NCBI GenBank assembly: GCA_963813065.1
Contig: CAWEXP010000008.1
Location: forward strand, 73,289-137,288
Direction: 5' to 3'
DNA length: 64,000 bases
From: Candidatus Kaiserbacteria bacterium
GTDB taxonomy: Bacteria; Patescibacteriota; Minisyncoccia; Phycocordibacterales; Phycocordibacteraceae
Shown here: positions 8,576 through 61,521 of the stretch, in pieces
Layout of the letters: each line of letters starts with the position of its first letter
Numbering within the stretch: position 1 is the stretch's first letter
Notes under the pieces: model-generated
Told to the model about the DNA's origin: nothing
The model's database searches: none
What the model saw: only the letters and a program-made list of their open reading frames with translations
Translations under genes and position numbers: made by a program

Positions 8576-8580
8576 TTATT

Positions 8581-10484: not shown

Positions 10485-10495
10485 GTATGTGTAGT

Positions 10496-10959: not shown

Positions 10960-11055
10960 GAAAAGATGAATTAAAAGTTATACCCACCATACTAACAGGT
11001 TCTCCACCTTGCGCCAGGGTTTGCAGACTTCGTGGGACGCGTATAATCAACCGAC

Positions 11056-12405: not shown

Positions 12406-12514
12406 AACTTATGGAGACTTATCAACAGCATCAAAAGTGGGGTGGGGTTGAAAAAGCAAGTAAATACAAAGCTTATTTGCCTATCCCCAGTATCCACCGC
12501 TATAATAAGGGCGT
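12406..12514. promoter_or_regulatory. Candidate oriC segment with DnaA-box-like 9-mers
   Basis: dnaA-dnaN intergenic region contains TTATCAACA (12419-12427, 8/9 to TTATCCACA), TATCCCCA and TATCCACC (12482-12498). The rpmH-dnaA spacer (10960-11055) has weaker box-like motifs. Confidence 0.4.
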
Positions 12515-13615: not shown

Positions 13616-13620
13616 TCTTG

Positions 13621-13665
13621 AGTGAGATCAGACCTAAACAGCAACTGTTTAGGTCTGATCTCACT
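13621..13665. terminator. Perfect 21-bp inverted repeat (3-nt loop) between convergent dnaN and PBP1A genes
   Basis: agtgagatcagacctaaacag-caa-ctgtttaggtctgatctcact. Confidence 0.5.
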
Positions 13666-17332: not shown

Positions 17333-18348
17333 AACAGTTTCTGCAGAGCTGATTGCAAATATTCGCGCCCTTTCTCGGTCAAGATGCGTCCGCGCGGCGA
17401 GCGCTCGACGAGGCCGAGGCGCAGGAGATAGGGCTCGTAGACGTTCTCGAGTGTCTCGACCTCTTCGTGGAGACCCGAGGCGAGCGCGCGGATACCTGCC
17501 GGCCCACCTCTGAAGCTGTGTTGAAGAGTTTCGAGATAGCGACGGTCATCTTTGGTCAGGCCGAAAGCGTCGACACCGAAGAGTTCGCACGCTTCATCGC
17601 AGAGCTCGGCCGAGAGCGGGCGTTCACGCACTTCGGAGAAGTCACGGACGCGCTTCAAGAGTGAATTCGCGACGCGCGGAGTCGCGCGACTCCGCGCCGC
17701 AATGCGATCAATGACGGCCTCAGGCGCATCGAGCCCGAGGAGGAGGGCCGATCGGCGAATAATATCGCGCAATTCTTTTTCGCTATAGAAATCGAGCTGG
17801 TACGTGCCGCCGCCGAAGCGTGAGCGTAGGGGGCCCGAGAGTTCGGCGACGCGGGTAGTCGCGCCGACGAGCGTAAAGGGTGGAAGCGGGAGCTCAACGG
17901 TTCGCGCTGAAGGGCCTTTCCCCAAGACGATGTCGAGATGACCGCTTTCGAGCGCGGGGTAGAGCAATTCTTCAATCTTGCGCGAGAGGCGATGGATTTC
18001 GTCGATGAACAGCACGGTGCCCGGTTCGAGATTGGTGAGAATGGCGGCGAGATCGGCCGCGCGTTCGATGGCGACGCCCGACGTATTCTTCAAATGGGCG
18101 CCGAGGGTGTTCGCGACGAGGTGGGCGAGGGTCGTTTTGCCGACGCCTGGGGGGCCATAGAAGAGAATGTGTTCGGGCATGCCGCCGCGCTTCTTGGCGG
18201 CGTCAATGGCGATGCGGACATTCGCCTTGATCTGTTCCTGCCCGACATACTCCTCCCAGCGCGCGGGGCGGAGCGCCGCATCGAGCACTTCCGTCACTAC
18301 CATTCCACCTTCTGCATCTTGTTTGACGGTCGGTCGAGGACTTGACAT
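17329..18348 (-). CDS. ruvB: Holliday junction branch-migration helicase RuvB
   Basis: AAA+ motifs FYGPPGVGKTTLAHLVA and LFIDEIHRL, C-terminal winged helix. Confidence 0.95.
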   Translation of the reverse strand: MSSPRPTVKQDAEGGMVVTEVLDAALRPARWEEYVGQEQIKANVRIAIDAAKKRGGMPEHILFYGPPGVGKTTLAHLVANTLGAHLKNTSGVAIERAADLAAILTNLEPGTVLFIDEIHRLSRKIEELLYPALESGHLDIVLGKGPSARTVELPLPPFTLVGATTRVAELSGPLRSRFGGGTYQLDFYSEKELRDIIRRSALLLGLDAPEAVIDRIAARSRATPRVANSLLKRVRDFSEVRERPLSAELCDEACELFGVDAFGLTKDDRRYLETLQHSFRGGPAGIRALASGLHEEVETLENVYEPYLLRLGLVERSPRGRILTEKGREYLQSALQKLL

Positions 18349-20927: not shown

Positions 20928-21377
20928 ATGGAACAGCGGATTGAAAATCTCGATGAGCTCGGGCTCGCGGCGCAGGCCTTTGTTGCGCAATTGGTGCCGC
21001 GAAGAGAGGGTGCGACGCTCGTCACCCTCTCGGGCGAGCTCGGGGCGGGGAAGACCGCGTTTACCAAGGGGGTTGCGAAAGCGCTCGGTATCGAGGAAGT
21101 GGTCACCAGCCCCACGTTCGTTTTGGAAAAAATATACCAACTCAAGAATCAAAAATTTACGCGTCTCATTCATATAGATGCTTACCGTCTCGAGTCTGCC
21201 GCCGACCTCGCGTCGCTCGGTTTCGACGAAAGTATGAAGGATCCGGGGAACCTCATTTTCCTCGAATGGCCGGAACGAGTTGCTGGGGGCTTGCCGAACG
21301 CCCCGGTCGAGCTCACCTTTTCCGTCCTCCCCGACCATTCTCGCCATCTGCGGATTACAGGTACAATAGGAGGGTGA
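20928..21377 (+). CDS. tsaE: tRNA t6A biosynthesis protein TsaE (YjeE)
   Basis: P-loop LSGELGAGKTAFTKG. Probable ATG at 20928 (the track ORF starts at an upstream TTG). Confidence 0.7.
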   Translation: MEQRIENLDELGLAAQAFVAQLVPRREGATLVTLSGELGAGKTAFTKGVAKALGIEEVVTSPTFVLEKIYQLKNQKFTRLIHIDAYRLESAADLASLGFDESMKDPGNLIFLEWPERVAGGLPNAPVELTFSVLPDHSRHLRITGTIGG

Positions 21378-23689
21378 CCAAGAAACGCCTCGTCCTCTTA
21401 GACGCCCACGCGATTATCCATCGCGCGTATCACGCCTTGCCAGACTTCACCGGCCCCACAGGCGAGCCGACGGGCGCGCTCTACGGCGTCGTCGCGATGT
21501 TGCTGAAGATTATCACCGAACTCAAGCCGGATTATATTGCCGCATGCTACGACTTGCCCGGCCCCACCGTGCGCCACGAGGCCTATGCCGAGTACAAGGG
21601 CACGCGTGCGAAAACGGATGATGCACTGGTCGCTCAGCTCAATAGTTCGCGCAAAGTCTTCGAGGCGTTTTCGATTCCGGCGTATGATCGTGCAGGATTC
21701 GAGGCTGACGACTTGCTCGGCACCATCGCGCATGAGATGGAATCAAAGAAAGATATTCAAGTCATCATCGCGTCGGGCGATATGGACACGCTCCAGCTCG
21801 TTGATGACAAGCGCGTGATGGTCTATACGCTGAAGAAGGGAATTAATGACACTATTTTATACGACGAAGCAAATGTGAAAGAACGGTTTGGATTCAAGCC
21901 CGCGCTCATTCCGGATTACAAAGGCCTTCGCGGTGATCCGTCCGACAACATCAAAGGCGTCCCCGGTATTGGCGACAAGACGGCGACCGAGCTCATTGTT
22001 AATTTTGGCACCATCGAACAGCTGTATAAAAAATTGAAGAAGAGCGAGACGGTGTTGGTAGAAAAAGGCGTCAAGAAACGCGTCATCGAACTCTTGAAAG
22101 CACACGAAGAAGACGCGCTCTTCTCGAAGAGTCTTGCGACGATTCGCACCGACGCGCCGATTGCCTTCGGATTACCGAAAGACTCATGGCGCGAGGGTGT
22201 TGATGAGAAAAAAATTCTCGCAATGTGCGACGAGTTCGGATTCCGGTCGCTCAAAACGCGTATTAAAATGACGCTCGGCGGGCAGAAGCAATTTGATGAA
22301 GCTTTGGATCCGCATAGGACGAACGGGGTTGGCGAGGGCGTTCCGCCAAAGCCTTCACAAATTCCTCCTACCCGCCTCGCGCAAGCACAAGTGATGCTTT
22401 GGCTCATCTCTTCTGAATTCACTGACGCAACACTCGACGACCTGCTTGCGTTTACCAAGAAAGAAAATTTCGACGCCGCATATGCCGAGCTCGAGAAACA
22501 GCTCGGCGAGCTGGGGCGCGTGCGCGACGTGTACGAGAACATCGAGAAGCCACTCATCCCGGTTATCCGCGGGATGGAGGAGCGCGGCATTCTCGTCGAC
22601 CCCGCCGTGCTCGCGGATCTCGCGAAGAAATATCGCGCCGAGCTTGAGTCAATCGAGAAGAAAATTTATAAAGCGGCGGGGCACGAGTTCAATATCGCCT
22701 CGCCCAAACAGCTCGCGGTGGTTCTCTTCGACGAGATGCACCTCGTGCCCGAGAAGCAGAAGAAGACGCCGGGTGGCGAACGCTCGACACGCGAGAGCGA
22801 GCTGGAAAAAATAAAAGAACTGCACCCCATCGTCGCGCAGATTCTCGATTATCGCGAATTGAAAAAGTTACTCTCGACCTACATCGATAACTTGCCGCCC
22901 TTACTCGACCTTGGGCACCGCCTCCACGCACGTTTCGTCCAGACGGGTACCACCACCGGCCGCATGAGTAGCCAGGACCCGAATCTGCAGAATATTCCAC
23001 TCCATTCCGAGCGCGGCAAGGCGATTCGTCACGCATTTGTTGCAACCGATGGTTTCGAGCTTGTCTCACTCGACTATTCGCAAATCGAATTGCGTATTGC
23101 CGCCATCCTCTCAGGCGACGAGAAACTCTGCGAGATATTCCGCCACGGGCGCGACGTGCACACCGAGGTCGCATCGATGGTCTTCGGCGTTGAGGCGGAG
23201 AAGGTGGATCAAGAAATGCGCCGCCGGGCCAAGGTGATCAACTTCGGCATTCTCTACGGCATGGGCGCCAATGCTCTGCGCGCTCAACTCGGCAGCTCGA
23301 CCGCCGAGGCACATCAGTTCCTCGAAGATTATTTCCACACCTTTAAAACGCTGGCCGAATATCTCGAGACAACGCGAGGGTTCGCGCGCAAGCACGGCTA
23401 CACCGAGACCCTCTTCGGTCGCCGCCGCCAATTCTCGGAGATGAAGTCGCCTCTGCCGTATGTCCGCGCGCAAGCCGAGCGCATGGCGATCAATGCACCA
23501 ATCCAGGGTACGCAGTCAGATATCATCAAGCTCGCAATGGTGCGCGCCGACGAGATGTTGAAAGAGAAAAAGCGTCTGATGACGCACATCTTTTGCTCCA
23601 AGTGCATGACGAACTGGTCTACGAGATACAAAAAGAGCGCGTCACCAATCTCTCGGCGCGTATCAAGAAAATTATGGAATCGGTGTTGA
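21374..23689 (+). CDS. polA: DNA polymerase I (5'-3' exonuclease + polymerase domains); 3' end frameshifted, continues to 23769 in the -1 frame
   Basis: GTG start at 21374 preceded by AGGAGG. Pol A motifs RRRAKVINFGILYGMG and QGTQSDIIKLAM. After ADEMLKEKK the frame is lost. The -1 frame reads HLLLQVHDELVYE...GPNWGNLKVV-stop (canonical motif C and C-terminus). Break at the A5 run 23567-23571. Confidence 0.85.
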   Translation: MTKKRLVLLDAHAIIHRAYHALPDFTGPTGEPTGALYGVVAMLLKIITELKPDYIAACYDLPGPTVRHEAYAEYKGTRAKTDDALVAQLNSSRKVFEAFSIPAYDRAGFEADDLLGTIAHEMESKKDIQVIIASGDMDTLQLVDDKRVMVYTLKKGINDTILYDEANVKERFGFKPALIPDYKGLRGDPSDNIKGVPGIGDKTATELIVNFGTIEQLYKKLKKSETVLVEKGVKKRVIELLKAHEEDALFSKSLATIRTDAPIAFGLPKDSWREGVDEKKILAMCDEFGFRSLKTRIKMTLGGQKQFDEALDPHRTNGVGEGVPPKPSQIPPTRLAQAQVMLWLISSEFTDATLDDLLAFTKKENFDAAYAELEKQLGELGRVRDVYENIEKPLIPVIRGMEERGILVDPAVLADLAKKYRAELESIEKKIYKAAGHEFNIASPKQLAVVLFDEMHLVPEKQKKTPGGERSTRESELEKIKELHPIVAQILDYRELKKLLSTYIDNLPPLLDLGHRLHARFVQTGTTTGRMSSQDPNLQNIPLHSERGKAIRHAFVATDGFELVSLDYSQIELRIAAILSGDEKLCEIFRHGRDVHTEVASMVFGVEAEKVDQEMRRRAKVINFGILYGMGANALRAQLGSSTAEAHQFLEDYFHTFKTLAEYLETTRGFARKHGYTETLFGRRRQFSEMKSPLPYVRAQAERMAINAPIQGTQSDIIKLAMVRADEMLKEKKRLMTHIFCSKCMTNWSTRYKKSASPISRRVSRKLWNRC

Positions 23690-23765
23690 CCAAAGAAGAG
23701 GCGCGCCATGTGCCCATCCTCGCCGCAGAAAAGATTGGTCCGAATTGGGGCAATCTGAAAGTCGT

Positions 23766-24374
23766 ATGATCTACCTTTTCCACGGTTCTGACGTCGAAAA
23801 AGTGCGGCGGCAGGCGTTCGCTTTTATCGAAGCGGCACGGAAGAAGCAGCCCGACCTCGCGTATGTGCGCCTCGCGCGCGAAGAAATGACTGCGGGCGCG
23901 CTCGAGGAAGTTGCGAGCGCTGGGGGGCTCTTCGTCAGCCGCTTGCTGGTGCTCCTTGATGACCCCTTCTCGGGCGACACCAATCTCGTCGAGGAATATA
24001 TCGAACCACTCGCGAAGTCCGACAATGCGATCATTGTTCTCGCGCCGAAATTGCCGCCTGCAAAAGCAAAAAAACTTTCCGCGAAGGCGGCGAAGTCGTA
24101 CGAGTTCAATGCCGCCGCGCGCGAGGACGCGCGCGGATTTAATTCCGCACTCGTCAACGCACTCGGCGCTCGCAATCCTCAGAAACTCTGGCTCGAAGTC
24201 GTCCGCGCGCTCTCGAAGGGTGATGCACCCGAACAAGTCCACGGCCTCTTGCACTGGAAGGCCCGCACCATGTCGCGCGAACTCTCCTTGTCGCTTATTG
24301 CGCTCCTTATGGATTCTCGCCGCGCTGGCATCGACCTCGCTGAATCGCTCGAGCGCTGGGCCCTTTCTATTTAA
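23766..24374 (+). CDS. holA: DNA polymerase III delta subunit-like (HolA-like, short)
   Basis: MIYLFHGSDVEKVRRQAFAFIEAA resembles the HolA N-terminus. Start overlaps the restored polA stop (ATGA). Ends 12 bp before repeat 1. Confidence 0.45.
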   Translation: MIYLFHGSDVEKVRRQAFAFIEAARKKQPDLAYVRLAREEMTAGALEEVASAGGLFVSRLLVLLDDPFSGDTNLVEEYIEPLAKSDNAIIVLAPKLPPAKAKKLSAKAAKSYEFNAAAREDARGFNSALVNALGARNPQKLWLEVVRALSKGDAPEQVHGLLHWKARTMSRELSLSLIALLMDSRRAGIDLAESLERWALSI

Positions 24375-24386: not shown

Positions 24387-24423
24387 GTTGCACAATATCC
24401 TTTTTCCGAAGGTGGTGTGCAGG
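24387..24423 (+). repeat. Array repeat R1
   Basis: Exact 37-mer, 12 bp after the holA-like stop. Confidence 0.9.
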
Positions 24424-25041
24424 TAACTCTCGCGCTGACGGGCGCGCGAATATCGGAAGTACTGGCGCTAACCGGCGAACGTAGTGCAGAAATGTCATGG
24501 AGATGCTCGGTCAGAAACTACGCTAATCTATACAAATTTAACAATTCACTTAGAACCTCATCACGTTGACTCCGTTGAGAACACCCACCGCCTTGGCAAA
24601 GTTAATTAGCATCTAGTCGTTTCGATCAACTGAGACATTACCGGATGGGCGTCGTAATGGATCGGCCAATGAGGCTGACGCTGAGCCCGGTCTAACTCGT
24701 ATCGGCCCCGTCAACAGGGGCAAGCATTGGTCCTTTCAGCGCGGCCCGCGAGACGGTCACAGTTTGGCGTGAGATGCCGGGAGCGGACCCGCCCCATCGG
24801 TTCAGACGTAACGAGCCTTCGAGTTGCATCGGTGAAGCTATCCACACGCGGGCCTGGGCCCAATGAATACCCAAAAGTCAGAGCGCTTGCTTAGTGCGCC
24901 TAGTCGATTACATAATGGTTACTGTGTGATATTATCCACATGCGCGTCTCTGAACTTTGTGGGGAGATCGGATGAGCGTATATGTTGCCCCCAGATTACT
25001 CAGCCTTCAAGGCAAACATGAACCGAGGCCATAAGTAGAGC

Positions 25042-26265
25042 ATGTCAAACGAAGAGCGCTTAGATCAAATCCTGTCGCGTGGCGTTATCAAACAGATACT
25101 GCCGAGCGAGCAAGAGTTCAAAGAACGTATGCTCAGCGGCGCACCGCTGCGGTTTTACATCGGTGCTGATCCAACTAGTAATGCTCTCCACCTCAGTCAC
25201 GCCAAGAACTATCAAGTCTTGGAAGAATTTCGCCTACTCGGCCATGAGGTAATTGTCTTGTTCGGCGATTTCACCGCGCGTATCGGCGATCCCACAGACA
25301 GGACCGCGGCTCGATCACGTCTCACCGGCGATGAGATACGGAAAAACGTTGAGGATTGGATGAGGCAAATCCGTCCATTAATGGACTTCAGTGCCAAAGA
25401 AAACCCTCCGCGAGTTCTCTTCAATTCTGAATGGCTATCTCCTCTGACTTTCGAAGAGGTTGTGAACTTGGCATCCAACATGACAGTGCAAAGGATGCTT
25501 GAGCGAGATATGTTCGAGCGGCGCATGGAAGAGCAGAGGCCTATCTTCCTACATGAGTTCCTATATCCTCTTATGCAAGGGTACGATAGCGTCGCTATGA
25601 ATGTGGACGTTGAATTATGTGGGACTGATCAGATATTTAACGCTCTCGTTGGCCGCTCCCTTCAAAAGACGTACAACAATAAAGACAAGTTTGTAGTGGC
25701 CGTGAATCTAATGGAAAATCCGGTGACTGGAGCTCTGATGTCAAAGAGCCGAGGTACTGGAGTGTTTCTGGATGCGGAACCGTTCGATATGTACGGATCC
25801 ATAATGGCGCAACCTGACGAAATGATAGAGATAATTCTCCTCAACAATACGCGTTTGCCTAAGGACGAAATCGTCCGAGTGTTGGCCCTCGGCCCACGCG
25901 ACGCAAAAATGAGAACGGCATTTCTCGTCACCACTTTGTTTCATGGTGAGGAAGCTGCTTTCGCGGCCGAACAGAGGTTCGTTGAGGTGATACAGAAGAA
26001 AATGGCCCCCACCAGTATTCCAACCATCGGTGTTAGTAGAGAGACACCAGCTGCGTTCGAGATTGTCAGGGCGTGCCTCGACGCCAACGTATCAAATAGC
26101 GAAATAGGTCGGCTGTTCAAACAGCGCGCAATCAGGATCGATGGTGATGTCGTAGATGACCGCGACAAGGTGATCAGGCTGTCGGCCGAGGGAACGAAGG
26201 TAAATGTCGGGAAACGAAAATGGTTCAACGTCGTCGCAGCGCGTTGCGCTGACGGAGCTAGCTAG
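25042..26265 (+). CDS. tyrS: Tyrosyl-tRNA synthetase (class I, with C-terminal S4 domain) carried in cassette 1
   Basis: HIGH-type motif (ADPTSNALHLSHA), KMSKS-type motif (LMSKSRGTGV), C-terminal S4-like RLFKQRAIRIDGDVV. 407 aa. Confidence 0.8.
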   Translation: MSNEERLDQILSRGVIKQILPSEQEFKERMLSGAPLRFYIGADPTSNALHLSHAKNYQVLEEFRLLGHEVIVLFGDFTARIGDPTDRTAARSRLTGDEIRKNVEDWMRQIRPLMDFSAKENPPRVLFNSEWLSPLTFEEVVNLASNMTVQRMLERDMFERRMEEQRPIFLHEFLYPLMQGYDSVAMNVDVELCGTDQIFNALVGRSLQKTYNNKDKFVVAVNLMENPVTGALMSKSRGTGVFLDAEPFDMYGSIMAQPDEMIEIILLNNTRLPKDEIVRVLALGPRDAKMRTAFLVTTLFHGEEAAFAAEQRFVEVIQKKMAPTSIPTIGVSRETPAAFEIVRACLDANVSNSEIGRLFKQRAIRIDGDVVDDRDKVIRLSAEGTKVNVGKRKWFNVVAARCADGAS

Positions 26266-26533
26266 CGATTTCTTGAACGAAATTCTGCTCAGAACATCGT
26301 GGTTTGCTGGTCTGAACGCTCCATTGCCACTTTGGGATGTCCTATTTATTGGCGGCTCCCTAAAGTACAACATTGCACGTCCTGACTCAGATGTTGATCT
26401 GTTTCTCGTTATGCCAAGGCATATCCAGTTAGAGCGTCAGATCAACCCCGTTTACGAATTTCGATTTCGTCACCACATACAAGTCGTTTGCGTATGCATT
26501 TCTGCTGACGAAAAACAGGTGTCACACGAATAA
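26204..26533 (+). CDS. Minimal nucleotidyltransferase-fold protein (MNT-like)
   Basis: GS-x9-DxD signature (FIGGSLKYNIARPDSDVDLFLV). Overlaps the tyrS 3' end by 62 nt, so the start is uncertain. Confidence 0.45.
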   Translation: MSGNENGSTSSQRVALTELASDFLNEILLRTSWFAGLNAPLPLWDVLFIGGSLKYNIARPDSDVDLFLVMPRHIQLERQINPVYEFRFRHHIQVVCVCISADEKQVSHE

Positions 26534-26747
26534 ATGGTTGTCGTACGATCTTTGCAGATTTTCTCCGACTGTCCACGTTCTTCTATCGCGCCTGACGCAA
26601 CGAAATGGGTTGTCCAGTGACTTTTTTATACAGATGAACCAGCTATGGGGGCAACTCTTGTCTGAAGTTGGACTTACGGCAACGAAAGGCATATCATGGT
26701 CTAATCAAAACCTAGACTTGTTGCTCTTTCAATAGAGGGGCACCGCG

Positions 26748-27635
26748 ATGAACGACCACTTCGTAGCATCGTATTTTGACTTTTCTGCATTGCCGATTGA
26801 CTTTGTTGGCAAGCAGACTTTGTGGGGGGTCTCGCCGGTCTCGCCACTTCACTTGGGCTATGATGCGTTGTTTGGCATGCAGTCGCAGTTGTGCGAATTG
26901 GGTGCAAAACCTCGGACGCTGCTAGCCGACGTCCACGCGATGATGTCTCACGGGTTATCCAAGAACGACGTGGTAGTCCGTGCCAGCTACTACGATCACG
27001 TTTTGAGGGACGTGTTTTCCATAGACACAGAAGTAATTCTCGGTTCAGGGTTTGAATACACGGAAGGCTACACAGCAATTTTGTACAAAACCATGCAACA
27101 CTTTACCGTTGGTCAGTCGAAACAGGCTGCTGGAGCGACAAAGAAGAACACCCGCGACACCATCGACCGTTACGTTTATCCGCTAATGCAGTGTGTGGAC
27201 GCAGCAATTCTCGGTCCAGACATCATTGTGGCCGAGAGAAGTCAGGAAAAAATCTATAGGCTGATGAGATCGATGGCTGATGAGCCGGTTTTTGACTCAA
27301 TTTGTGCGTGGTTGTCGTCAGTACACATTGTCTATGTGGAATCAACGCACGATTTGAACGGCGAAAGGATGCAGAACAGCTCGCGGCACACCCGGATAAG
27401 CTACCACGACGAAGCTGATGTAGTGGAGGCGAAAGTGAGGAAAATGTTTGCGCCACCAGAGGCGAAACAACAAGGTGAGAAAGGGAATCCACTCTTGGTT
27501 GCACAATATCCTTTTTCCGAAGGTGGTGTGCAGGTCTTGGTTGCGGCAACGAATGGACGCGAGCCTCAATGGAGAGATATTGAAGGCCGAAAAATGGCAC
27601 TCATGCCAGAACCGCAATCTGCAGTGAGAATTTGA
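26748..27635 (+). CDS. Class I aminoacyl-tRNA synthetase-like protein (TrpRS/TyrRS family), 3' end replaced by array repeat R2
   Basis: HIGH-like region GVSPVSPLHLGYDALFG and a catalytic-core-like middle. The last ~46 codons are encoded by the repeat plus flank. Likely a truncated paralogue. Confidence 0.5.
   Translation: MNDHFVASYFDFSALPIDFVGKQTLWGVSPVSPLHLGYDALFGMQSQLCELGAKPRTLLADVHAMMSHGLSKNDVVVRASYYDHVLRDVFSIDTEVILGSGFEYTEGYTAILYKTMQHFTVGQSKQAAGATKKNTRDTIDRYVYPLMQCVDAAILGPDIIVAERSQEKIYRLMRSMADEPVFDSICAWLSSVHIVYVESTHDLNGERMQNSSRHTRISYHDEADVVEAKVRKMFAPPEAKQQGEKGNPLLVAQYPFSEGGVQVLVAATNGREPQWRDIEGRKMALMPEPQSAVRI
27498..27534 (+). repeat. Array repeat R2
   Basis: Exact 37-mer. Lies inside the 3' end of the aaRS-like ORF 26748..27635 (encodes VAQYPFSEGGVQ). 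Confidence 0.9.
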
Positions 27636-27683
27636 TGGGGAAAAGCACTTCCGCCCTAAATTTCGAGACTTTATCCGGAGGAG

Positions 27684-28712
27684 ATGATGGAAAATCGTGA
27701 TTTGGCAAGCCAAGAATTATCTGGGCTATTGTTTTCGGAGTTCGACGCGAACAAACCCATAGAGTGGAAGAATGATAGAATGTCGGCGTTTCTATTGCGA
27801 GCAGCATTTAATATTGTTCGCTGTGACGAATACCTAAGTACCATTCCCCTCACTCGGGTTCGTCCGAGCATACATCGCGAACTTTATGGCGCTCTGCGAA
27901 ACTACGCGTTGAAAGGTGACTTGGGGTTTGAAGAACATGACGAATGGAAGTTTTGGTCCATAAGTTGCTTGATCAACGACGCCCAATATCGAATCGCGGC
28001 AACGTTCGATCGATGCATAGCCCACTGGATTATTAAGTTCTTCCGTGACGTGGAGCCGTCGCATCCTCAAAAAGAAAGGGCAGCGCCCATAGAAGATCTG
28101 CTCCACTCCTGGGAGTCGGTAAAATTGATGACGCTCAAAATCTCTTTGTCGAGCATGAAACAAGTGTGCGATGCGATGCCAGACGAGAGTGGTTCGACGC
28201 TTTCTGAGTCACTCCACAAAAGCATGTTATCAATCGAAAGAATCTCTTCTGCTTTGTGGTTATCTGGAACAGATACTGCAGCAGGTGCTATTCGACATGC
28301 TCAAAATGCATACTGCAGACGCATCAGAGAGGTGGCCACATCAGGTGATTGCCTTTCGGCATACAGGCTAATCGACCAATTGTCGGTATGCAGACAGGAT
28401 GCGAAAGGGAAGATTTATGAGCGAGCGAATAACATGAACGATGAGGAATGTCTTGCTATTGTTATTGGGCGGGTAAACGATTTCAAACATCGAGCAATCG
28501 GACCAAATATTGAAGAGGAGCTGAAAGAGGAGGCGAAGCCGTACCTGCGTCACATCGAGCTTGCCATTACAATTCAGGCATTGCGCATAGTGACGCGATT
28601 TTTCAAAGCTATGTCTGCGTGTATAGAAAAAGCCTCCGAACTGGGTTTGGAGGCTTCAAAGAACAATCAAGCGCGCACTGGAGAAGTTGTACCGTTCAGT
28701 AAAGCATTGTAG
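27684..28712 (+). CDS. Hypothetical protein (cassette 2)
   Basis: 342 aa, no recognisable motif, AT-rich codon usage unlike the flanking core genes. Confidence 0.4.
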   Translation: MMENRDLASQELSGLLFSEFDANKPIEWKNDRMSAFLLRAAFNIVRCDEYLSTIPLTRVRPSIHRELYGALRNYALKGDLGFEEHDEWKFWSISCLINDAQYRIAATFDRCIAHWIIKFFRDVEPSHPQKERAAPIEDLLHSWESVKLMTLKISLSSMKQVCDAMPDESGSTLSESLHKSMLSIERISSALWLSGTDTAAGAIRHAQNAYCRRIREVATSGDCLSAYRLIDQLSVCRQDAKGKIYERANNMNDEECLAIVIGRVNDFKHRAIGPNIEEELKEEAKPYLRHIELAITIQALRIVTRFFKAMSACIEKASELGLEASKNNQARTGEVVPFSKAL

Positions 28713-29074
28713 CGCTTAAGACATTGAGGCGCCCAATGTTCCTCAAACGCCTTCGCACTTTCCTTCCCGACTCCTACGTGAAATGTCAAAATGCTGACTG
28801 CCGGTATCGCCAATGCGCGGCCTCTCAGTGCAACCGCCTTCTTAAGCAACAAGAGCTCACCTTTGGACTTTGATGTGGTGTGCTCATTCTCCAATTCGTC
28901 ATCAATTGCATCCAGCGCGCGGTCCACTTCGTCGATTGTCAGAAGTATACCGGCCGATCCTACAAACACATTAAGCAACGATGGATGCGCAAGAGCTTTC
29001 AATATAGGATGGCGAACTTCCCATTCAAACTGATCGCTGTCGCAGCATGATACCCTTGCATCTAGTGTCGTCAT
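28667..29074 (-). CDS. Hypothetical protein (only minus-strand ORF in the array)
   Basis: 135 aa, overlaps the 3' end of 27684..28712. Weak call. Confidence 0.25.
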   Translation of the reverse strand: MTTLDARVSCCDSDQFEWEVRHPILKALAHPSLLNVFVGSAGILLTIDEVDRALDAIDDELENEHTTSKSKGELLLLKKAVALRGRALAIPAVSILTFHVGVGKESAKAFEEHWAPQCLKRYNALLNGTTSPVRA

Positions 29075-29309
29075 TGCACTCTCCTGATTAGGTCAACCGA
29101 GTTCCGACGATCCAGAACCCGGCATTCGCCAACCAAGAAGCCAAGTGCTTGCACCTGAGATGTGGAGTATACGAAGTAATCAATGTAAAGGCAACTTGCC
29201 ATAGTGCTCAGTATACAGACTTAACACTATGAGCAATATTGTTCAGTATTTACTAGCCGGTCAACTACTTTCTTCTTGCTTGCTTTGAGTATGCCGCCAA
29301 CCTTGATTT

Positions 29310-29891
29310 ATGTTGTTTGATCAAGCAGGTACGCGCAAATACCTCACTGCCGATGAACGACGCGCCTTCATTCGCGCGGCAAAGCGGTTCGTTCCTCCGG
29401 TCGAAACATTCTGTCTGACCCTAGCGCTCACGGGAGGGCGAATTTCGGAGATACTCGCGCTCACGCCCGACCGCATCGACCGAGCGAGCCACACGATCAT
29501 CATTGAGAGCCTCAAAAAGCGGCGTAGCGGTGTTTTTAGAGCCGTTCCTGTGCCGGACTACCTCATAGACAAGCTGACCGCCGTTCATGGCGTTTCTAGC
29601 GGTACAGGCGACACGTCGTTACGCAGCGAGCGACTCTGGCGGTGGAGCCGAACAACGGCGTGGCACTACATAAAGACGGTGATGGTCGCTGCTGGAATTC
29701 CCCGAAACGTGTCGAAGCCAAAGGCGCTGCGCCATGGCTTCGGCGTCGCCGGTACGCAGTCAGGCGTACCACTCAATATCATCCAGCGCTGGATGGGCCA
29801 CTCTCGTCTCGAAACCACGGCGATCTATACCAACGCTGTTGGTGATGAAGAGCGCGCCTTGGCCAAGCGGATGTGGAACGGGATGCCGTAA
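29310..29891 (+). CDS. Small tyrosine recombinase / phage-integrase-family catalytic domain
   Basis: Box I Arg (LALTGGRISEILAL). Motif RHGFGVAGTQSGVPLNIIQRWMGHSRLETTAIYT (H-x-x-R ... Y nucleophile). Only 193 aa. Confidence 0.8.
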   Translation: MLFDQAGTRKYLTADERRAFIRAAKRFVPPVETFCLTLALTGGRISEILALTPDRIDRASHTIIIESLKKRRSGVFRAVPVPDYLIDKLTAVHGVSSGTGDTSLRSERLWRWSRTTAWHYIKTVMVAAGIPRNVSKPKALRHGFGVAGTQSGVPLNIIQRWMGHSRLETTAIYTNAVGDEERALAKRMWNGMP

Positions 29892-29911
29892 AGAGTCACA
29901 TAGAGAACCGC

Positions 29912-29948
29912 GTTGCACAATATCCTTTTTCCGAAGGTGGTGTGCAGG
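29912..29948 (+). repeat. Array repeat R3
   Basis: Exact 37-mer, 20 bp after the tyrosine recombinase stop. Confidence 0.9.
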
Positions 29949-30303
29949 GTATCCACTGCGACCATTATTTGCAGTGAGATTCAATTTCCAAAGCTGAAGT
30001 AGTTGTCGGCGACCCAAACATTAATTCAGTATACTGATTAAACAGAATGAAGGCATTCTGTTCAGTGTCAGCAAACTACATCCGTCTCGAAGGCGGGGCT
30101 TTGCTCCCAAAGATAGATAGGAATCTGTAGGCCGGGCACCGCGACGATTAGGGGAAAGTGCGGAAACGCAGCCGTCTTGGGACCAGAAACGACCAAAACA
30201 GCTCAATAACCGCGCCAATCCCTGGGGACAAACATCGTGGATCGATGGCGAAGCCACGGACATTGTTGCAATATTGCTCGCGGCGAATCAGTTGTAAGCT
30301 ATA

Positions 30304-31080
30304 ATGATCCTTGCACCTATGACACCTATGCGGGATGAGTGCATCTACTCGAAGTATGCGCGGTATTTCGATTTGCTTTATCCGCATGACAAGTACGAAC
30401 GGCAAGCCAACATTCTTGACGCTGTGTTTGCTCGATACAGCAACCGGAAAATATCGCACATCCTCGACTTGGCATGTGGCACTGGTTCGCTTGCGAACCT
30501 ATTGGTCAAACGGGGTTATGCAGTAACGGGTCTCGAATTGAGCAAAGAGATGATTGCTATTGCGCAAAGCAAGGTTCCCGAGTTGCATGCCGTGCAGGGC
30601 CGCCTCGAAGAATTTCCAATACGTGGATCATATGATGCCATTACGTGCGTTTCAGCGCTGAACTACCTAGAATCAGCAGGCGCTCTGGAAGAATTGTTTG
30701 CGCACTGTAGCGAGTCACTAGTCGATGGTGGGTTATTGATTATACAGAATGCGCTAGTCCGCGGACGGTCTCACAAGTTTGGGCAGCTTCACGTCAATAC
30801 TTTTTCCAACGGTTCGATTTCTCTTGCTAAGTTCGGCACCTGGGACCTGGATGAGGCAACGAACGAGTGTCAAGCAAAGTTCTGTATCTTGCTCAAACAG
30901 CACGGTCACACCAAATTCGACATAGACCTACACCGTCTTCGTGTGTTCTCAACGGGAGAAATTACGTCTGCTTTACAGAAGAGCGGTTTGCAACCGTACG
31001 TGCTTGATGAAAAGACACTTGCACCATATTTGAAATCTACGGCGCCTGCGCTCTTCGTGGGGCGCAAAATTGTATCGTGA
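30304..31080 (+). CDS. Class I SAM-dependent methyltransferase (cassette 3)
   Basis: Motif I ILDLACGTGSLANLLVKRGYAVTGLELS. Confidence 0.8.
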   Translation: MILAPMTPMRDECIYSKYARYFDLLYPHDKYERQANILDAVFARYSNRKISHILDLACGTGSLANLLVKRGYAVTGLELSKEMIAIAQSKVPELHAVQGRLEEFPIRGSYDAITCVSALNYLESAGALEELFAHCSESLVDGGLLIIQNALVRGRSHKFGQLHVNTFSNGSISLAKFGTWDLDEATNECQAKFCILLKQHGHTKFDIDLHRLRVFSTGEITSALQKSGLQPYVLDEKTLAPYLKSTAPALFVGRKIVS

Positions 31081-31288
31081 TAGTCAATTCGCTTTATTTC
31101 GGAAATTGGTATTTTCCTCAGTATCAGAGCTTGGGCGAGCGCTGCACTTTCGTTATCTGCGCGATGTATGGCATTTAATAGATATTTGCGGCCTCGAAAA
31201 AAAATCGGGGTTCTGACTCCAAACCGATAACGCAATGAAGACAGTGCGCACAGATGTGGTGCGGTGTGGTCTCCACACACAGCACGAA

Positions 31289-31325
31289 GTTGCACAATGT
31301 CCTTTTTCCGAAGGTGGTGTGCAGG
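31289..31325 (+). repeat. Array repeat R4 (variant)
   Basis: 37-mer with a single A>G change (CAATGTCC). Confidence 0.9.
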
Positions 31326-31647
31326 TAGCAGATGTCGAATACTTCATGCAGTTGGCGGCGGCGAATGGTGGTCGATGAACAGTATAAGAGTGTTCCTTCT
31401 CCGGCCTCGGACACATCCGAGGCCAGTTCGTACTTGCTGCAAGTATCGTTCTTGGGTCCCTGCTGTATTCTGTCGGCCGCATTTTCGTATATGCCCACGA
31501 TACGCGGCAGAACGATTCGTGGTCCACAAGTGGCAATGCGTTCGAAGTTCCTATGCTACAATTCCGTCATGGCTCACCAATATATGTCGCAGCAAGCAAT
31601 CACCATCCCGTTCTCAAATCAAATGACACGCGGCAACCCAGATTTTT

Positions 31648-32547
31648 ATGGAGTGGTTGGCTAGTTTCAGCTCAACCGGACTGCACTTCCTCCTGGCACT
31701 GTTCGTGGGGGTTATTTCGTTGGTCCATCCAACCCCGTCGCTGGTTTGGCAGACCGTTACTGTATCTCAAGCGTCGACCACCGCACTATCATCTGCCGTG
31801 CAGACGCAAGCTACCCAGCCGTCTGCTATGCAGACACAATCTGTTCAATGGGTGCCAATCGCAGCGGCTTCAAGCACGAGCTACTCGCAAAGCGGTTCGA
31901 TGATCTATTACGAAGGTCAGCAAATCGTCACGGCAGACCCGACTACATTCCATGTTTCGTATGACCCTTTCAGTCCAAACTCATACGCAAAGGACAAGGA
32001 TCAGGTGTACTTCGGTCACGATGCAGGTGTCGATGTTCCCTCTGTCGCAGCCGGAGCCGATGTAATTGCGGGCGCGGACCCGTCGACATTCACGCCGATC
32101 TATGACGCGGCCGGATACTTTACTTTCTATGCAAAGGACAAGAATCGCGTGTTTTATGGTGGTGGGCGTCTTTTCCACACTGAAGCGCTCCCTGCCACTT
32201 TCGTCGTTCTACCAAGCGGCGAGCCACCCGATCCAAACGTTGCTTTTTCAAAGGATCAAAATCATGTCTACACATGGGCCGGGATAGTTGTCGATGCCGA
32301 TCCGGCGTCATTTGTAGTGATTGGAACTGTTCCCTACGCACCAGAGTTCGGCAATAGTGGCCCTGTCTATGCAAAGGACAAGAGCCATGTTTTTGTATCG
32401 GATGGACGAACGCTCGCGAGAGTTATCCCGGGTGCTGATCTATCGAGTTTTGTAATCAGCCCTTATTCAGCAACATCCACCTATGACGCGGAGGACAGCA
32501 ACCACTTCTATCTCGATGGCAGGGTCGTGGCGAATGGCGCCCTGTAA
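31648..32547 (+). CDS. Secreted DKNYY-repeat protein (cassette 4)
   Basis: Signal/TM N-terminus. Repeated YAKDK(D/N)xVYFG...GADPSTF units (PF13644-like). Paralogous to 44221..45832. Confidence 0.65.
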   Translation: MEWLASFSSTGLHFLLALFVGVISLVHPTPSLVWQTVTVSQASTTALSSAVQTQATQPSAMQTQSVQWVPIAAASSTSYSQSGSMIYYEGQQIVTADPTTFHVSYDPFSPNSYAKDKDQVYFGHDAGVDVPSVAAGADVIAGADPSTFTPIYDAAGYFTFYAKDKNRVFYGGGRLFHTEALPATFVVLPSGEPPDPNVAFSKDQNHVYTWAGIVVDADPASFVVIGTVPYAPEFGNSGPVYAKDKSHVFVSDGRTLARVIPGADLSSFVISPYSATSTYDAEDSNHFYLDGRVVANGAL

Positions 32548-32576
32548 CGAGAAGTCGCGATCAACCCACGTGTCAA

Positions 32577-33176
32577 TTGACCTTTCGTTGTAACCCTAAA
32601 CTACGATTGCACGAAGGTCGCTCGTCATCCCGAAATGCTGACTTCAAAAAAGTCGGTTGCATAAAAGCCTTGAACGTCATTTGGTGCGAGGGAATTGTTA
32701 GGGCGTTGCACAATATCCTTTTTCCGAAGGTGGTGTGCAGGTTCGCTGGATCTCTAAATAGCGCTGGGCAACAGGTCGAGTCATTCATTGGTATTGTTGA
32801 AAATGGTTTTTTCGACTGGCTTAGCACATACGGCCAATCAGTTGGTGGCGGAGCGTTTGGGCAGGCCGCCGGGATTACAAATACGGCAATAGAGACAGCA
32901 AAGGTCGTAGCCGAAATTCTAGATGACGCCATAAAGTCAAAACCGGCGACTCGGCAATATCTCGATTACGAACTCCAATCATTCTGCAACGGCTCGACTT
33001 GTAGCGCGTCCCAGCTGGCCCAAGCTGCCAACGACCTCAATCAATACTCCGACGCAAAGGTTGGATTGAATCTCGTAAAACAAGGATTTGCATTGCCTAG
33101 CATGACCGAAGTCGAGTTCCTTCAGAATGCGCTAACGCAATACGCTCTTGAAAAGGGCTACAAGGTGGTAAACTGA
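32577..33176 (+). CDS. Hypothetical protein (cassette 5); true start probably downstream of repeat R5
   Basis: The track ORF reads through repeat R5 (LHNILFPKVVCR is an artefact). Downstream part is Gly/Ala-rich. Confidence 0.3.
   Translation: MTFRCNPKLRLHEGRSSSRNADFKKVGCIKALNVIWCEGIVRALHNILFPKVVCRFAGSLNSAGQQVESFIGIVENGFFDWLSTYGQSVGGGAFGQAAGITNTAIETAKVVAEILDDAIKSKPATRQYLDYELQSFCNGSTCSASQLAQAANDLNQYSDAKVGLNLVKQGFALPSMTEVEFLQNALTQYALEKGYKVVN
32705..32741 (+). repeat. Array repeat R5
   Basis: Exact 37-mer. Confidence 0.9.
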
Positions 33177-33244
33177 GTGGGCATTCACTGGGGAAGTTCT
33201 CAACCCGTGAGGCGACTTGCGCTACGTAATATCAACATCATTTT

Positions 33245-33895
33245 ATGTTTCTCATTCCGAAAGTCACATTTTATTCGTCCGCGGCATGTCTCGGCCTACT
33301 GGCGATAAGCATTGCGGTTTTTGCAATTCGCAGCGACCAACGACTACATACGCTTCCATCGGATCAGGATAGATTTGTAGCTGATTGCCTAGGGGCCAAT
33401 AGTCTCGTCACCGCATCAGATACGACCTTGTGGGCAACGTATCAAACAGCCGATGTTGTTGGAATTCCAGCGTTAAACTTCAAATATCCTAAGGGTTTCG
33501 GAATTCCGCAGTCCAAGGTGGCGGATGGTACTGAGGAAATTCTGTTTTATGACTCGATGGGAGCAATAGGTTCCCCCCTGCCATTTTGCTCCGCACTTGT
33601 CGTTGTTCCCATCAGGCTAAAACCGGATCAATCACTAGATTCGCTCGTTGCGGAACAAGCTCTCCCTATCGAAAAATTTAAAGTCACCAATCAGTTCGTC
33701 ATTAATGATTATCGCGTGGTAAGCCAAGCAGCAGCCCCTAATGCGTCAACAATTGACTACTACGTCCAGATGAATGGCGACCAAGTTTTGGACTTTGTCT
33801 TTTCGCGTTCAGGTCCCGACGGCAACTTAAATCAAATGTCAGAATACGCTGCGCTCAGCAAGCAAATCATGTACACGGTGCAGTTCACGCCTTAG
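33245..33895 (+). CDS. Membrane-anchored/secreted hypothetical protein (cassette 5)
   Basis: N-terminal TM MFLIPKVTFYSSAACLGLLAISIAVFAI. Confidence 0.45.
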   Translation: MFLIPKVTFYSSAACLGLLAISIAVFAIRSDQRLHTLPSDQDRFVADCLGANSLVTASDTTLWATYQTADVVGIPALNFKYPKGFGIPQSKVADGTEEILFYDSMGAIGSPLPFCSALVVVPIRLKPDQSLDSLVAEQALPIEKFKVTNQFVINDYRVVSQAAAPNASTIDYYVQMNGDQVLDFVFSRSGPDGNLNQMSEYAALSKQIMYTVQFTP

Positions 33896-34073
33896 CGTGC
33901 GGCTTCCCTGCCTAATCAGTCAGTGACTTCTGCTCAAGCATGTGACAAAGCGGCCTCGGTAACACCGAGGCCGCGGAAAAAACAGGGTTACAATCCTTAT
34001 TGACCAGCTTTCGCCGCCGAAAGCTGCATGAGGTATTCGACAGCCTCTTGCGCCTTGCTCGCGGCGGTGAAGA

Positions 34074-34110
34074 GTTGCACAATATCCTTTTTCCGAAGGT
34101 GGTGTGCAGG
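34074..34110 (+). repeat. Array repeat R6
   Basis: Exact 37-mer, 32 bp from the cas2 stop (34143). Confidence 0.9.
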
Positions 34111-34142
34111 GACAGGTGAATACTGGCTGGAATCGCGGATTT

Positions 34143-34439
34143 CTAGACAATTTCAAAAGACTTAGCATTATATTGCTCCTCAATAGTGGCGCTGGCAGTC
34201 GAGTTCGTCGCGCATGATTTGCAGGAGGCGAGTAGGTGCAGACGGTCTCGCTTTCCTGATAGCAATGATAACATTCGCGCCTCGAACTCCCGACGTTCTT
34301 TAAAGGAAAGGCGTCCGACGTAGAGTGTTGGTTGCAGCTTGGACAGAGCATAATTTTTGGAGAACTGCTCTGCCTGAGCCTGCCGCTTTTTGTTAGCGGT
34401 TCGCCACGCGGCGATAGTGAGGAAGCCTGGATCACTCAT
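34143..34439 (-). CDS. cas2: CRISPR-associated endoribonuclease Cas2 (divergent)
   Basis: 98 aa. 4-nt ATGA overlap with the cas1 stop. Beta1-basic stretch-beta pattern (FLTIAAW...KKRQAQ...LQPTLYVGRLS...RDRLHLL) matches the Cas2 fold order. Sequence is divergent, so identity rests mainly on size and coupling to cas1. Confidence 0.55.
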   Translation of the reverse strand: MSDPGFLTIAAWRTANKKRQAQAEQFSKNYALSKLQPTLYVGRLSFKERREFEARMLSLLSGKRDRLHLLASCKSCATNSTASATIEEQYNAKSFEIV

Positions 34440-35488
34440 GGTGCGTACTCGAAGGGTATATACATCGTCTCTTTCTCCATAAATATCCGCGCGAGGAGCT
34501 CGCTCTGCTCGGTAATCGCGGCTTTGAGCGTGCGGCGCTTGCCGCGATGGGGCACCTTGAGCTCAAGGTGCTTGAGTACCGCCTCGACCACTTTGCTTTT
34601 ACCTTGCGCCGAGAGCCGATATTCGTTTTTGCTGACCTGCTCAAAGTCGCCACGCTTGCCGAGCTCTTTGGAGATGAAAAGAGGAATGACGGCGGCATCG
34701 ACGGCTGGCACGCGAAACTCCTCGATGAGGTCCAAGACGAGCGCTGGCTTGCCATATCGTTCGGAGTGGTAGAGACCGAGGTATGGGTCGAGGCCGATAT
34801 AGAGGCAGGCGCGCTCAATCTCATTGTAGAGGATACCGTAGCCATAGTTGAGCGCGCTATTGAACTTGTCACGGCCCTGCGGGATGCGACCGGGGAACTT
34901 GAAGAGTAATCTCATGCTTTGCCAATAGCGTTCGGCGATAGAGCCCTCGAAGCCGAGCAGCTCCTCATTTGCGCGATTGCTCGGGAGCAATTTTGCGATT
35001 GACTCAAACATCGTCTCTGCCTGCATGCGTTCCTTGGCATTTTCCGCTCCGTACCGGTCGGTGAGGTGACGCATAAAGCGGATTTGGTTGCGGCACTTGC
35101 CGATGACAAACGTGCGCGCGAGTTCAAACGATTTGGTCGGGTCGGAGGAAACTGCCAGCTGTGCGCGGCGTAGCGTCGCGAGCCCCTTCGGGTCGCTGGA
35201 GAATATGCGCCCGACCGGCTTGCCGAACGCACCGAGATAAACGATGTCCACCTCATGTGCTAACGCGAGCTGTACCGCATGCATGGAGATAGAGGATGGG
35301 CGCAGTATGACAATTTTACTCAACCTACGAATTGGGTATTCTTTCTTCACGCGCGGCGGCTTCGGGAGCCCTATTGCTCGGCGTTTCCGGCCCCTCGGCA
35401 ATGGCGGTTTGGGCCCGGGGAGGGAGATGGTAATCCGCTCGCCCGTCGCGCCGATAAATGTGCCGTAGGTGTCTATCAGCAAATCCAT
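34436..35488 (-). CDS. cas1: CRISPR-associated endonuclease Cas1
   Basis: Hallmarks ERYWQSMRLLF, NSALNYGYGILYNE and GLDPYLGLYH...ALVLDLIEEFRVPAVD (compare S. pyogenes NAGLDYGYTLL / GLKH...DIMEPFRPLVD). Unusual Lys/Arg/Pro-rich insert near the N-terminus. Confidence 0.9.
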   Translation of the reverse strand: MDLLIDTYGTFIGATGERITISLPGPKPPLPRGRKRRAIGLPKPPRVKKEYPIRRLSKIVILRPSSISMHAVQLALAHEVDIVYLGAFGKPVGRIFSSDPKGLATLRRAQLAVSSDPTKSFELARTFVIGKCRNQIRFMRHLTDRYGAENAKERMQAETMFESIAKLLPSNRANEELLGFEGSIAERYWQSMRLLFKFPGRIPQGRDKFNSALNYGYGILYNEIERACLYIGLDPYLGLYHSERYGKPALVLDLIEEFRVPAVDAAVIPLFISKELGKRGDFEQVSKNEYRLSAQGKSKVVEAVLKHLELKVPHRGKRRTLKAAITEQSELLARIFMEKETMYIPFEYAP

Positions 35489-35630
35489 TGGCGAAAAAAT
35501 ACCACCGCACTTGACCGATAGTCAAGAGACTTGCTTTGTCCTCCGCGGGGGGGGGGTTCGAACCCGCGTATGCTATCATATAAAGGTAGTCGTCAAACTT
35601 GACTACAAGTGGTAGTGTTCGGCGAGACAT

Positions 35631-37476: not shown

Positions 37477-37478
37477 AC

Positions 37479-61516: not shown

Positions 61517-61521
61517 TTACC

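Follow-up and report, generated by a model that had tools for sequence, protein, structure and literature searches.

In a 64-kb stretch of DNA from a Candidatus Kaiserbacteria bacterium (the window, whose coordinates we use throughout), tyrS, a gene for tyrosyl-tRNA synthetase (TyrRS), is followed by a second, TyrRS-like open reading frame (ORF) that runs into a 37-nt repeat. How did such a gene come to end at a repeat, and what are the two genes doing there? An earlier sequence-only reading had taken the repeats as borders of integron-like cassettes, with genes for aminoacyl-tRNA synthetases (aaRS) as mobile cargo. We find instead that tyrS and the cut TyrRS-like gene are probably passengers on one kilobase-sized "spacer" (segment 1) of an atypical array that resembles CRISPR (short palindromic repeats, clustered and regularly interspaced) and that has a stand-alone Cas1-Cas2 module. 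The aaRS observation is itself modest; its value is that the cut gene and the adjoining remnant of a relaxase-family gene may expose the mechanism of capture. We number the repeats R1 to R6 from left to right, and the segments between them 1 to 5 (Table 1).

The second ORF (26748-27635, forward strand) encodes 295 amino acids (aa). It matches the Pfam family tRNA-synt_1b with E = 7e-15, over profile positions 9-231 of 292 only. Its best NCBIfam match is the archaeal-type TyrRS PRK08560, at 87.5 bits versus a cut-off of 220, and archaeal TyrRS chains from the PDB align to it at E = 4e-15 and end at its residues 249-254. Its motifs are degenerate (HLGY and RMQNSS), as they are in full-length relatives. 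The features that mark an archaeal or eukaryotic TyrRS (a score above the PRK08560 cut-off, the HIGH and KMSKS motifs, and a C-terminal anticodon-binding part) are missing from this ORF. By these comparisons, it appears to be a TyrRS-like paralogue and not an established synthetase.

A quick word-based search gave three relatives of this ORF only. An exhaustive HMMER search with the full-length relative P0003 (336 aa) gave 34 cluster representatives at E < 1e-30. Members of this TyrRS-like family have 325-360 aa and align to query residue ~325-330, while the window protein aligns only over residues 11-257. In an alignment, P0003 and P0002 have about 80 more residues beyond the place at which the window ORF reads into R2; by tblastn, homology ends at 27497 and R2 begins at 27498. 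Alignment to full-length homologues thus confirms that about 80 C-terminal residues are absent from the predicted TyrRS-like protein, and it puts the breakpoint one base before R2. We also considered a match (YPF) between the peptide encoded by the repeat and the homologues, which we rejected because it covers three residues only and because the repeat is common to all units of the array.

What replaces the lost residues? Of the last 46 codons of the ORF (stop codon included), the first 12.3 are repeat; the others come from a Replic_Relax gene, of which they are the native 3' end. The 32-aa tail is identical to the C-terminus of P0004, a Replic_Relax protein of 290 aa. The sequence-only reading was therefore right that R2 (27498-27534) lies inside the second ORF and that its last ~46 codons derive from the repeat and its flank. 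It had also proposed that a cut at a repeat means recombination or integration within a gene. The cut does mark an integration junction; the break, though, is the end of a donor fragment, and no repeat was inserted into a resident gene. Annotation should treat ORFs that are chimeric at the edge of a repeat (26748-27635 is one) as capture scars and not as genes.

Table 1. Repeats, segments, cargo genes and cas genes, in window coordinates
Feature	Start	End	Strand	Description
Repeat R1	24387	24423	-	farthest from cas2; 12 nt past holA-like stop codon
Segment 1 ("cassette 1")	24424	27497	.	3074 nt, GC 0.50; fragment of foreign tyrS operon
Recombinase remnant	24424	24490	+	5'-truncated tyrosine recombinase, 66 nt; in frame from first base after R1
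tyrS	25042	26265	+	intact; predicted bacterial-type TyrRS, 407 aa
Nucleotidyltransferase-like gene	26231	26735	+	middle gene, degraded
TyrRS-like paralogue, archaeal-type	26748	27497	+	native part, residues 1-250
Repeat R2	27498	27534	-	read through by chimeric ORF (codons 251-263)
Segment 2	27535	29911	.	2377 nt; conjugative-plasmid-like fragment: 342-aa ORF, 135-aa ORF, tyrosine recombinase
3' end of Replic_Relax-family gene	27535	27635	+	left edge of segment 2; gives last 32 aa and stop codon of chimeric ORF
Tyrosine recombinase	29310	29891		Phage_integrase family, 193 aa; in segment 2
Repeat R3	29912	29948	-	
Segment 3	29949	31288	.	1340 nt; methyltransferase 30304-31080
Repeat R4	31289	31325	-	one mismatch
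Segment 4	31326	32704	.	1379 nt; DKNYY-family ORF 31648-32547
Repeat R5	32705	32741	-	
Segment 5	32742	34073	.	1332 nt; 216-aa ORF 33245-33895; nearest to cas2
Repeat R6	34074	34110	-	first repeat, 35 nt beyond cas2 stop codon
Leader-like stretch	34111	34142	-	short; cas2 to first repeat
cas2	34143	34439	-	putative, divergent, 98 aa; overlaps cas1 stop codon (ATGA)
cas1	34436	35488	-	350 aa; E/H/D(E) catalytic motifs conserved

The repeat, GTTGCACAATATCCTTTTTCCGAAGGTGGTGTGCAGG, occurs six times in the window (none expected, from 100 shuffles), and all copies except R4 are identical. Six direct repeats of 37 nt are what a CRISPR array would have (repeats of ~23-55 nt, the same within an array). 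The repeat is an imperfect palindrome, with a predicted fold of -12.9 kcal/mol (z = -3). Read in the orientation of the cas genes (CCTGCACACCACCTTCGGAAAAAGGATATTGTGCAAC, with ends GTTGCA.../...TGCAAC), it presumably resembles, in length and at its ends, the repeats of compact type V-F (Cas12f/Cas14) systems from DPANN archaea. Instead of short, near-uniform spacers (~21-72 nt), the repeats in the window are separated by 1.3-3.1 kb (segments of 1332-3074 nt). In an Rfam scan, no CRISPR-DR family reached its gathering score for the repeat, and the scan of the window gave tRNAs only. Exact searches for the repeat in collections of genome and metagenome contigs gave no match. The repeats of relatives have diverged, and we therefore used scans based on Cas1 in place of these searches.

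The repeats lie next to an operon of cas1 and a putative cas2. Cas1 scores 222 bits against TIGR00287 (cut-off 71.7) and aligns over its full length to the Cas1 of PDB entry 7cr6. The columns of the catalytic E, H and D/E are invariant across 36 members of its clade, so this protein is predicted to be a Cas1 integrase with its catalytic residues in place. Its named relatives are from Paceibacterota, Parcubacteria and Patescibacteria, which places the host in the Candidate Phyla Radiation (CPR). The 98-aa ORF beside it has a weak but consistent match to Cas2 in three orthologues, including E = 9e-7 between PADLOC's Cas2b and the orthologue in locus L007, and this Cas2-like ORF is kept in 37 loci. 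Around the array and the cas module, the window has holA, polA, tRNA-Lys and a LAGLIDADG gene.

Segment 2 has near-identical donors. Window positions 27535-29247 match positions 8195-9907 of a 15.6-kb contig (L001) at 99.7% identity, and this contig encodes a TrwB-type coupling protein, a Replic_Relax protein, and the same 341-aa, 135-aa and recombinase genes. The first base past R2 is where the identity begins, and in L001 this point falls within the intact 290-aa Replic_Relax gene. At the other end of the segment, a contig from a different sequencing run (L006) is 99.7% identical to window positions 29219-29911 and diverges at the first base of R3. Both junctions of segment 2 are thus base-exact. 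We searched L001 at up to 8 mismatches and found no repeat-like sequence, and the 24 nt of L006 that lie past the R3 junction are not repeat sequence. Two independent and arbitrary breakpoints in a donor that is free of the repeat imply the capture of a fragment, and not site-specific recombination.

This bears on the integron-like frame of the sequence-only reading, in which the 193-aa recombinase would use the repeats as attC- or dif-like sites, with functional aaRS genes as the mobile cargo. The array does share features with integrons and other arrays made by tyrosine recombinases: it has tandem gene-sized units and a recurring site that can fold; there is a Phage_integrase gene in segment 2; a recombinase remnant opens segment 1 (as read from the sequence, it resembles residues ~37-58 of the recombinase in segment 2); and segments 3-5, at ~1.35 kb each, have one intact central ORF apiece, which gives them the look of cassettes. 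However, the recombinase has the same neighbours in the plasmid-like donor L001, which makes it part of the captured cargo. It scores just 36 bits against TIGR02249 (cut-off 265) and is far below the cut-offs for integron integrases and Xer proteins. There is no IntI beside an attI site here and no set of variable attC sites around whole-gene cassettes: the sole recombinase is inside a segment, the repeats are identical within the array, the donors lack the site at the ends of the segment, and relatives have no conserved recombinase near their arrays, where only Cas1 and Cas2 recur. Furthermore, coding sequence is interrupted at segment ends as often as at random positions (see below). The integron-like account is largely refuted, and we consider it very improbable; the repeats belong to the cas1-cas2 locus.

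Segment 2 is a mosaic relative to L001, with 99.7% and then 86% identity and the switch at 29219-29247. The window has one copy of the sequence at the switch, cttaacactatgagcaatattgttcagt, while L001 (9880-10015) has two, which have diverged and are separated by 76 nt. Here the identity to L001 falls and the identity to L006 starts. This site separates two modules upstream of the recombinase gene, and the recombinase may use it for recombination.

Is the kilobase spacing peculiar to this genome? Scans with Cas1 alignments gave 61 loci from genomes and 80 from metagenomes. Among these we defined a CPR clade by a Cas1 identity of at least 42-47%, and we added a locus from Aenigmatarchaeota at 39%. 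Loci of this clade have a related repeat of 36-37 nt, CCTGCA..GTCGCAAAAAGGA..TTGTGCAAC (CCTGCA..AAAAGGA..TTGTGCAAC), 3' of cas2; the repeats are the same within an array and differ between lineages. For example, in a metagenome-assembled genome (MAG) from another study (L007), whose Cas1 is 85% identical, cas1-cas2 is followed by four related 36-nt repeats that are 2.9, 1.4 and 1.5 kb apart. The stretch that corresponds to the leader often has GCT at its end in these relatives, plus a CCAGAAAA/CCGAAAA-like motif.

Across 20 loci from the genome collection plus the window, we examined 50 segments between repeats. These range from 140 to 4242 nt, with a median of ~1.5 kb, and none of the 50 has 25-50 nt. 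As an internal control, the same scans and the same repeat detection gave canonical arrays with spacers of 32-45 nt at the loci of distant Cas1 proteins (at most 35% identity). More than 20 loci of this Cas1 clade have Cas1-Cas2 linked to kilobase-spaced repeats, and assemblies with this architecture come from many independent studies and submitters. Within 10 kb on either side of 39 loci, only Cas1 and Cas2 recur; no effector or other gene family does.

As a side observation, two array repeats in locus L043 enclose part of cas1 (residues 112-346) together with cas2 and the leader (9972-11126), which is either a self-derived "spacer" or a duplication of the array.

The survey helps to weigh a second alternative: a former ordinary CRISPR array, or a single island, might have been rearranged later by insertions of mobile elements into spacers, deletions or illegitimate recombination, which would have given the long intervals and trimmed the TyrRS-like gene. 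Such events are visible, as segment 1 has internal deletions (in its middle gene and in the recombinase remnant) and segment 2 is a mosaic. But no remnants of short spacers are left, and sequence that is identical to donors abuts the repeats at both ends of segment 2. Segment ends have neither terminal inverted repeats nor target duplications. Homologous recombination between repeats would drop whole units, not the part of a gene at the edge of a repeat, and the same architecture, without any canonical spacer, is found in more than 20 loci of the clade. We regard later rearrangement as quite unlikely.

Could the assembly have joined unrelated contigs at a short shared repeat? The window is from a MAG contig of 137.9 kb, and it does show signs of indel errors (the frameshift in polA and a split Mur ligase). 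In polA (23560-23770), the tail of ORF 21266-23689 is out of frame, and the conserved C-terminal motif (LQVHDELVYE...) is found in ORF 23593-23769. Yet every segment has the repeat on both sides, and independent Logan unitigs of the same run extend from unique sequence into R3 and R6 by 29-30 nt, so that they hold the junctions of unique sequence to these repeats. The same architecture is also seen across many studies and assemblers. At worst, doubt would attach to the segment order and not to the flanking of the segments by repeats. We give an assembly chimera hardly any credence.

Signs of ongoing acquisition at the first repeat come from contigs that encode an identical Cas1. These contigs have 99.96-100% identity as far as the final base of a single repeat and then have three different continuations (the L008, L010-12 and L124 types): host sequence in five contigs, one insert of >1.1 kb in three, and another sequence in one. 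Three more pairs of loci diverge directly after an identical first repeat. Variation is thus leader-proximal.

The ends of the inserts are arbitrary. For segments of at least 1 kb, the stop-free runs that start at segment ends have a median of 327 nt, versus 402 nt at random internal positions (p = 0.51); both are far longer than in shuffled sequence (122 nt). This indicates that genes are cut at segment edges about as often as chance predicts. The second ORF of the window is a typical case. In L007, a Patatin ORF and an SpvB/FG-GAP ORF run into repeats, and their domain matches stop short of the repeat or at it. In the window, the frames that are open at the ends of segments 3-5 gave no Pfam match. 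The ends of the 50 segments have no shared motif, no base that resembles a protospacer-adjacent motif (PAM), no inverted terminus and no target duplication.

As in CRISPR arrays, the inserts are foreign, as judged from the match of segment 2 to the TrwB/Replic_Relax element, from the operon in segment 1 (see below), and from base composition. The GC content of the segments in the window is 0.485-0.518, versus 0.54-0.56 for the flanks, and 43 of the 50 segments are lower in GC than the host flank. For the 342-aa and 216-aa proteins of the cargo, scans of viral contigs gave no relatives.

Segment 1, with the two aaRS-like genes, has a recognizable source. Operons in L002 (from JGI) and in L075 with L003 (both from one Logan run) encode a CPR-like TyrRS, a nucleotidyltransferase-like protein (259 aa), the TyrRS-like paralogue, an aldehyde dehydrogenase and a short-chain dehydrogenase/reductase (SDR). 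The L002 operon (7865-14395) also has a transporter of the major facilitator superfamily (MFS); it is an island of lower GC (0.58 versus 0.67) in a high-GC contig that does not look like CPR. In the window, the nucleotidyltransferase-like gene matches residues 2-80 and 153-260 of the 259-aa homologue from L002, in two different frames and with ~270 nt missing. Because the assembly has probable indel errors, we base our call of a pseudogene on the deletion and not on the frameshift. By these comparisons, segment 1 is a decayed fragment of a foreign operon that is broken inside its third gene, with only tyrS intact. Around segment 1, scans for promoters and terminators gave results at the level of chance.

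The TyrRS-like paralogues of L002, L003 and L075 have HLGY and R-M/I-Q-x-SSR in place of HIGH and KMSKS. The operon in these contigs may be a small biosynthetic or resistance cluster.

We also confirmed that tyrS is complete, as had been claimed. Its product scores 298 bits against TIGR00234 (cut-off 113.8) and matches end to end (residues 3-398 of 3-404/406), and it matches Pfam's tRNA-synt_1b with E = 1.9e-54. The HLSH and LMSKS motifs, the C-terminal region and all of the family-invariant residues are kept, as compared to the TyrRS of Patescibacteria. With a full-length match above the curated cut-off and the class I motifs, it is predicted to be a bacterial-type TyrRS. No Rfam family, and no T-box, was found upstream of it.

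An intact synthetase gene raises the possibility that tyrS is the host's working TyrRS, perhaps the only one, whether inherited vertically or captured and then selected. It is intact beside two decayed neighbours, which could mean that it is used and under selection; its closest relatives outside of its own small clade are from Patescibacteria (57-65% identity); and the window encodes no other TyrRS or TrpRS, which means little as the window is a small part of the genome. On the other side, its product is 81, 80 and 72% identical to the three TyrRS that are linked to the operon and groups with them, apart from the TyrRS of Patescibacteria, in a neighbour-joining tree (100/100 bootstraps); where the context of these relatives is known, the same operon is found in other organisms. 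The GC content at third codon positions is 0.56, below the 0.68-0.76 of polA, cas1 and ruvA, although some host ORFs go down to 0.60. Finally, tyrS lies between array repeats in a block that is absent from the same backbone site in the collinear contig L008, where ~90 nt separate holA from tRNA-Lys, versus 11.2 kb of array and cas genes in the window. The absence of the block, the composition and the operon-linked clade together argue against vertical inheritance of tyrS at this site. We infer that tyrS is not the housekeeping copy, and we consider it unlikely that the host relies on it.

What, then, of the proposal that aaRS genes are mobile cargo, perhaps for antibiotic resistance? Both genes are foreign cargo, given their GC content and the absence of the block from L008. 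They are not a working aaRS pair in a mobile, integron-like cassette, as the repeats belong to the cas1-cas2 locus and segment 1 is decayed. Extra aaRS copies in biosynthetic clusters are self-resistance or auxiliary paralogues, for example of the mupirocin or indolmycin type. The donor-type operons are similar in that they link tyrS to a divergent TyrRS-like paralogue and to genes for the nucleotidyltransferase-like protein, aldehyde dehydrogenase and SDR. A resistance or auxiliary role may hold in the donor operon, for which the linked aldehyde dehydrogenase, SDR and MFS genes are suggestive only. In the window, in contrast, the operon is broken, so that a role beyond that of tyrS is unlikely.

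We can now propose how the TyrRS-like gene was cut. A linear fragment of a foreign operon (tyrS, nucleotidyltransferase-like gene, TyrRS-like gene, aldehyde dehydrogenase, SDR) would have been inserted at the repeat adjacent to the leader. Cas1-Cas2 would catalyse the staggered integration, and the 37 bp would be duplicated by gap repair; CRISPR adaptation proceeds likewise, though with a length ruler (~30 bp) that would be lacking here. The substrates would be free linear DNA. The end of the fragment would have fallen after codon ~250 of the ~336 codons of the third gene. The cut gene now reads through R2 to the captured fragment that follows, whose own start lies inside a plasmid's relaxase-family gene. 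On this model segment 1 should be the oldest segment, which fits its decay. Because segment ends fall in coding sequence about as often as random positions do, we favour gene capture with little selection at the level of genes over some form of memory.

This process would be similar to CRISPR adaptation in that there is an operon of cas1 and a putative cas2 with identical, partly palindromic direct repeats of 37 nt just past cas2, and in that foreign inserts have base-exact junctions and variation is concentrated at the first repeat. It would differ in that the inserts are long and highly variable instead of ~30-40 nt, in that no effector or other cas gene was found within 10 kb on either side, and in that the leader-like stretch is only ~30-35 nt. 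There are also similarities to casposons, in which a Cas1-family integrase moves kilobases of DNA that are bounded by a duplicated target sequence. Casposon target duplications are ~14-15 bp, and here the duplicated unit is 37 nt. Casposons have Cas1 with a family B polymerase and terminal inverted repeats; in contrast, we found no PolB or other recurrent polymerase gene here, no terminal inverted repeats in the 50 segments, a putative Cas2, and inserts that are heterogeneous foreign fragments and not copies of one element.

Several points weigh against our account. Known Cas1-Cas2 complexes measure out substrates of ~30 bp, and kilobase integration at this locus is predicted from sequence. 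The match of the 98-aa ORF to Pfam's Cas2 (E of 1e-4 to 1e-2) is under the gathering score. An effector or a normal array could lie beyond 10 kb from the cas genes in these genomes. Near-identical donors were found for segment 2 alone; the relatives of segment 1 are 57-81% identical at the protein level, which places its breakpoint within about two codons, and the junction of the second ORF with R2 is supported by one assembly. The polA frameshift near 23590 is more likely to be an indel error in the assembly than a frameshift in an essential gene, which advises caution about all calls of pseudogenes in the window. The cassette-like look of segments 3-5 and the intact tyrS, which are discussed above, count on the same side.

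Does the account extend beyond the window? We tentatively suggest, with slightly less than even confidence, that stand-alone Cas1-Cas2 modules of one widespread clade, in CPR bacteria (Parcubacteria/Paceibacterota with their relatives) and in at least some DPANN archaea, build arrays from kilobase fragments of foreign DNA and not from spacers of ~30 bp. Such a clade would be a Cas1-driven device for the capture of DNA and genes, with no known effector and mechanistically between casposon integration and CRISPR adaptation. In the literature that we searched, with incomplete coverage, we found no description of kilobase spacers or of Cas1-linked gene arrays. If the suggestion is true, then the length ruler that is held to be intrinsic to CRISPR integrases is not universal, and these loci would be a living example of the intermediate that has long been postulated between casposons and CRISPR arrays. 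Ultra-small, host-dependent CPR bacteria would have a built-in route to foreign genes (here, an intact tyrS) or long records of mobile elements. To obtain an integrase for writing long DNA at a defined site, these enzymes would be a natural point of departure.

The cas1-cas2-repeat module itself may be mobile. Collinear relatives have it at different places, a trait that recalls casposons: it occupies 24387-35630 in the window, while L008 has it between ruvB and a T2SSE gene (9987-11418, with the site of the window's array at 17705-17796). The 1450-nt unit in L008 is flanked by an 18-nt direct repeat (AGGGAGTATGAGCGGGAT). The module is also multicopy in one MAG, as MFD05512.bin.1.167 has at least four cas1 loci.

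Between cas1 and tRNA-Lys in the window (35489-35630) there is a 3' fragment that resembles a tRNA (gcgggttcgaacc) and a run of nine C. The spacer between holA and tRNA-Lys in L008 also has tRNA-like fragments, and integration at a tRNA gene may have left all of these as scars.

Other parts of the window also differ from what surrounds them or from relatives. About 2 kb (36531-38600) are absent from L008, with a gene for a lamin-tail-domain protein. The same ~2 kb hold the M and C domains of the Mur ligase, which are spread over two overlapping ORFs (37479-38039 and 38036-38467), without an N-terminal domain. Outside of the array, three stretches have a low GC content (0.45-0.49 versus ~0.56), at 11000-13700, 44000-46000 and 60000-64000, and may be foreign islands.

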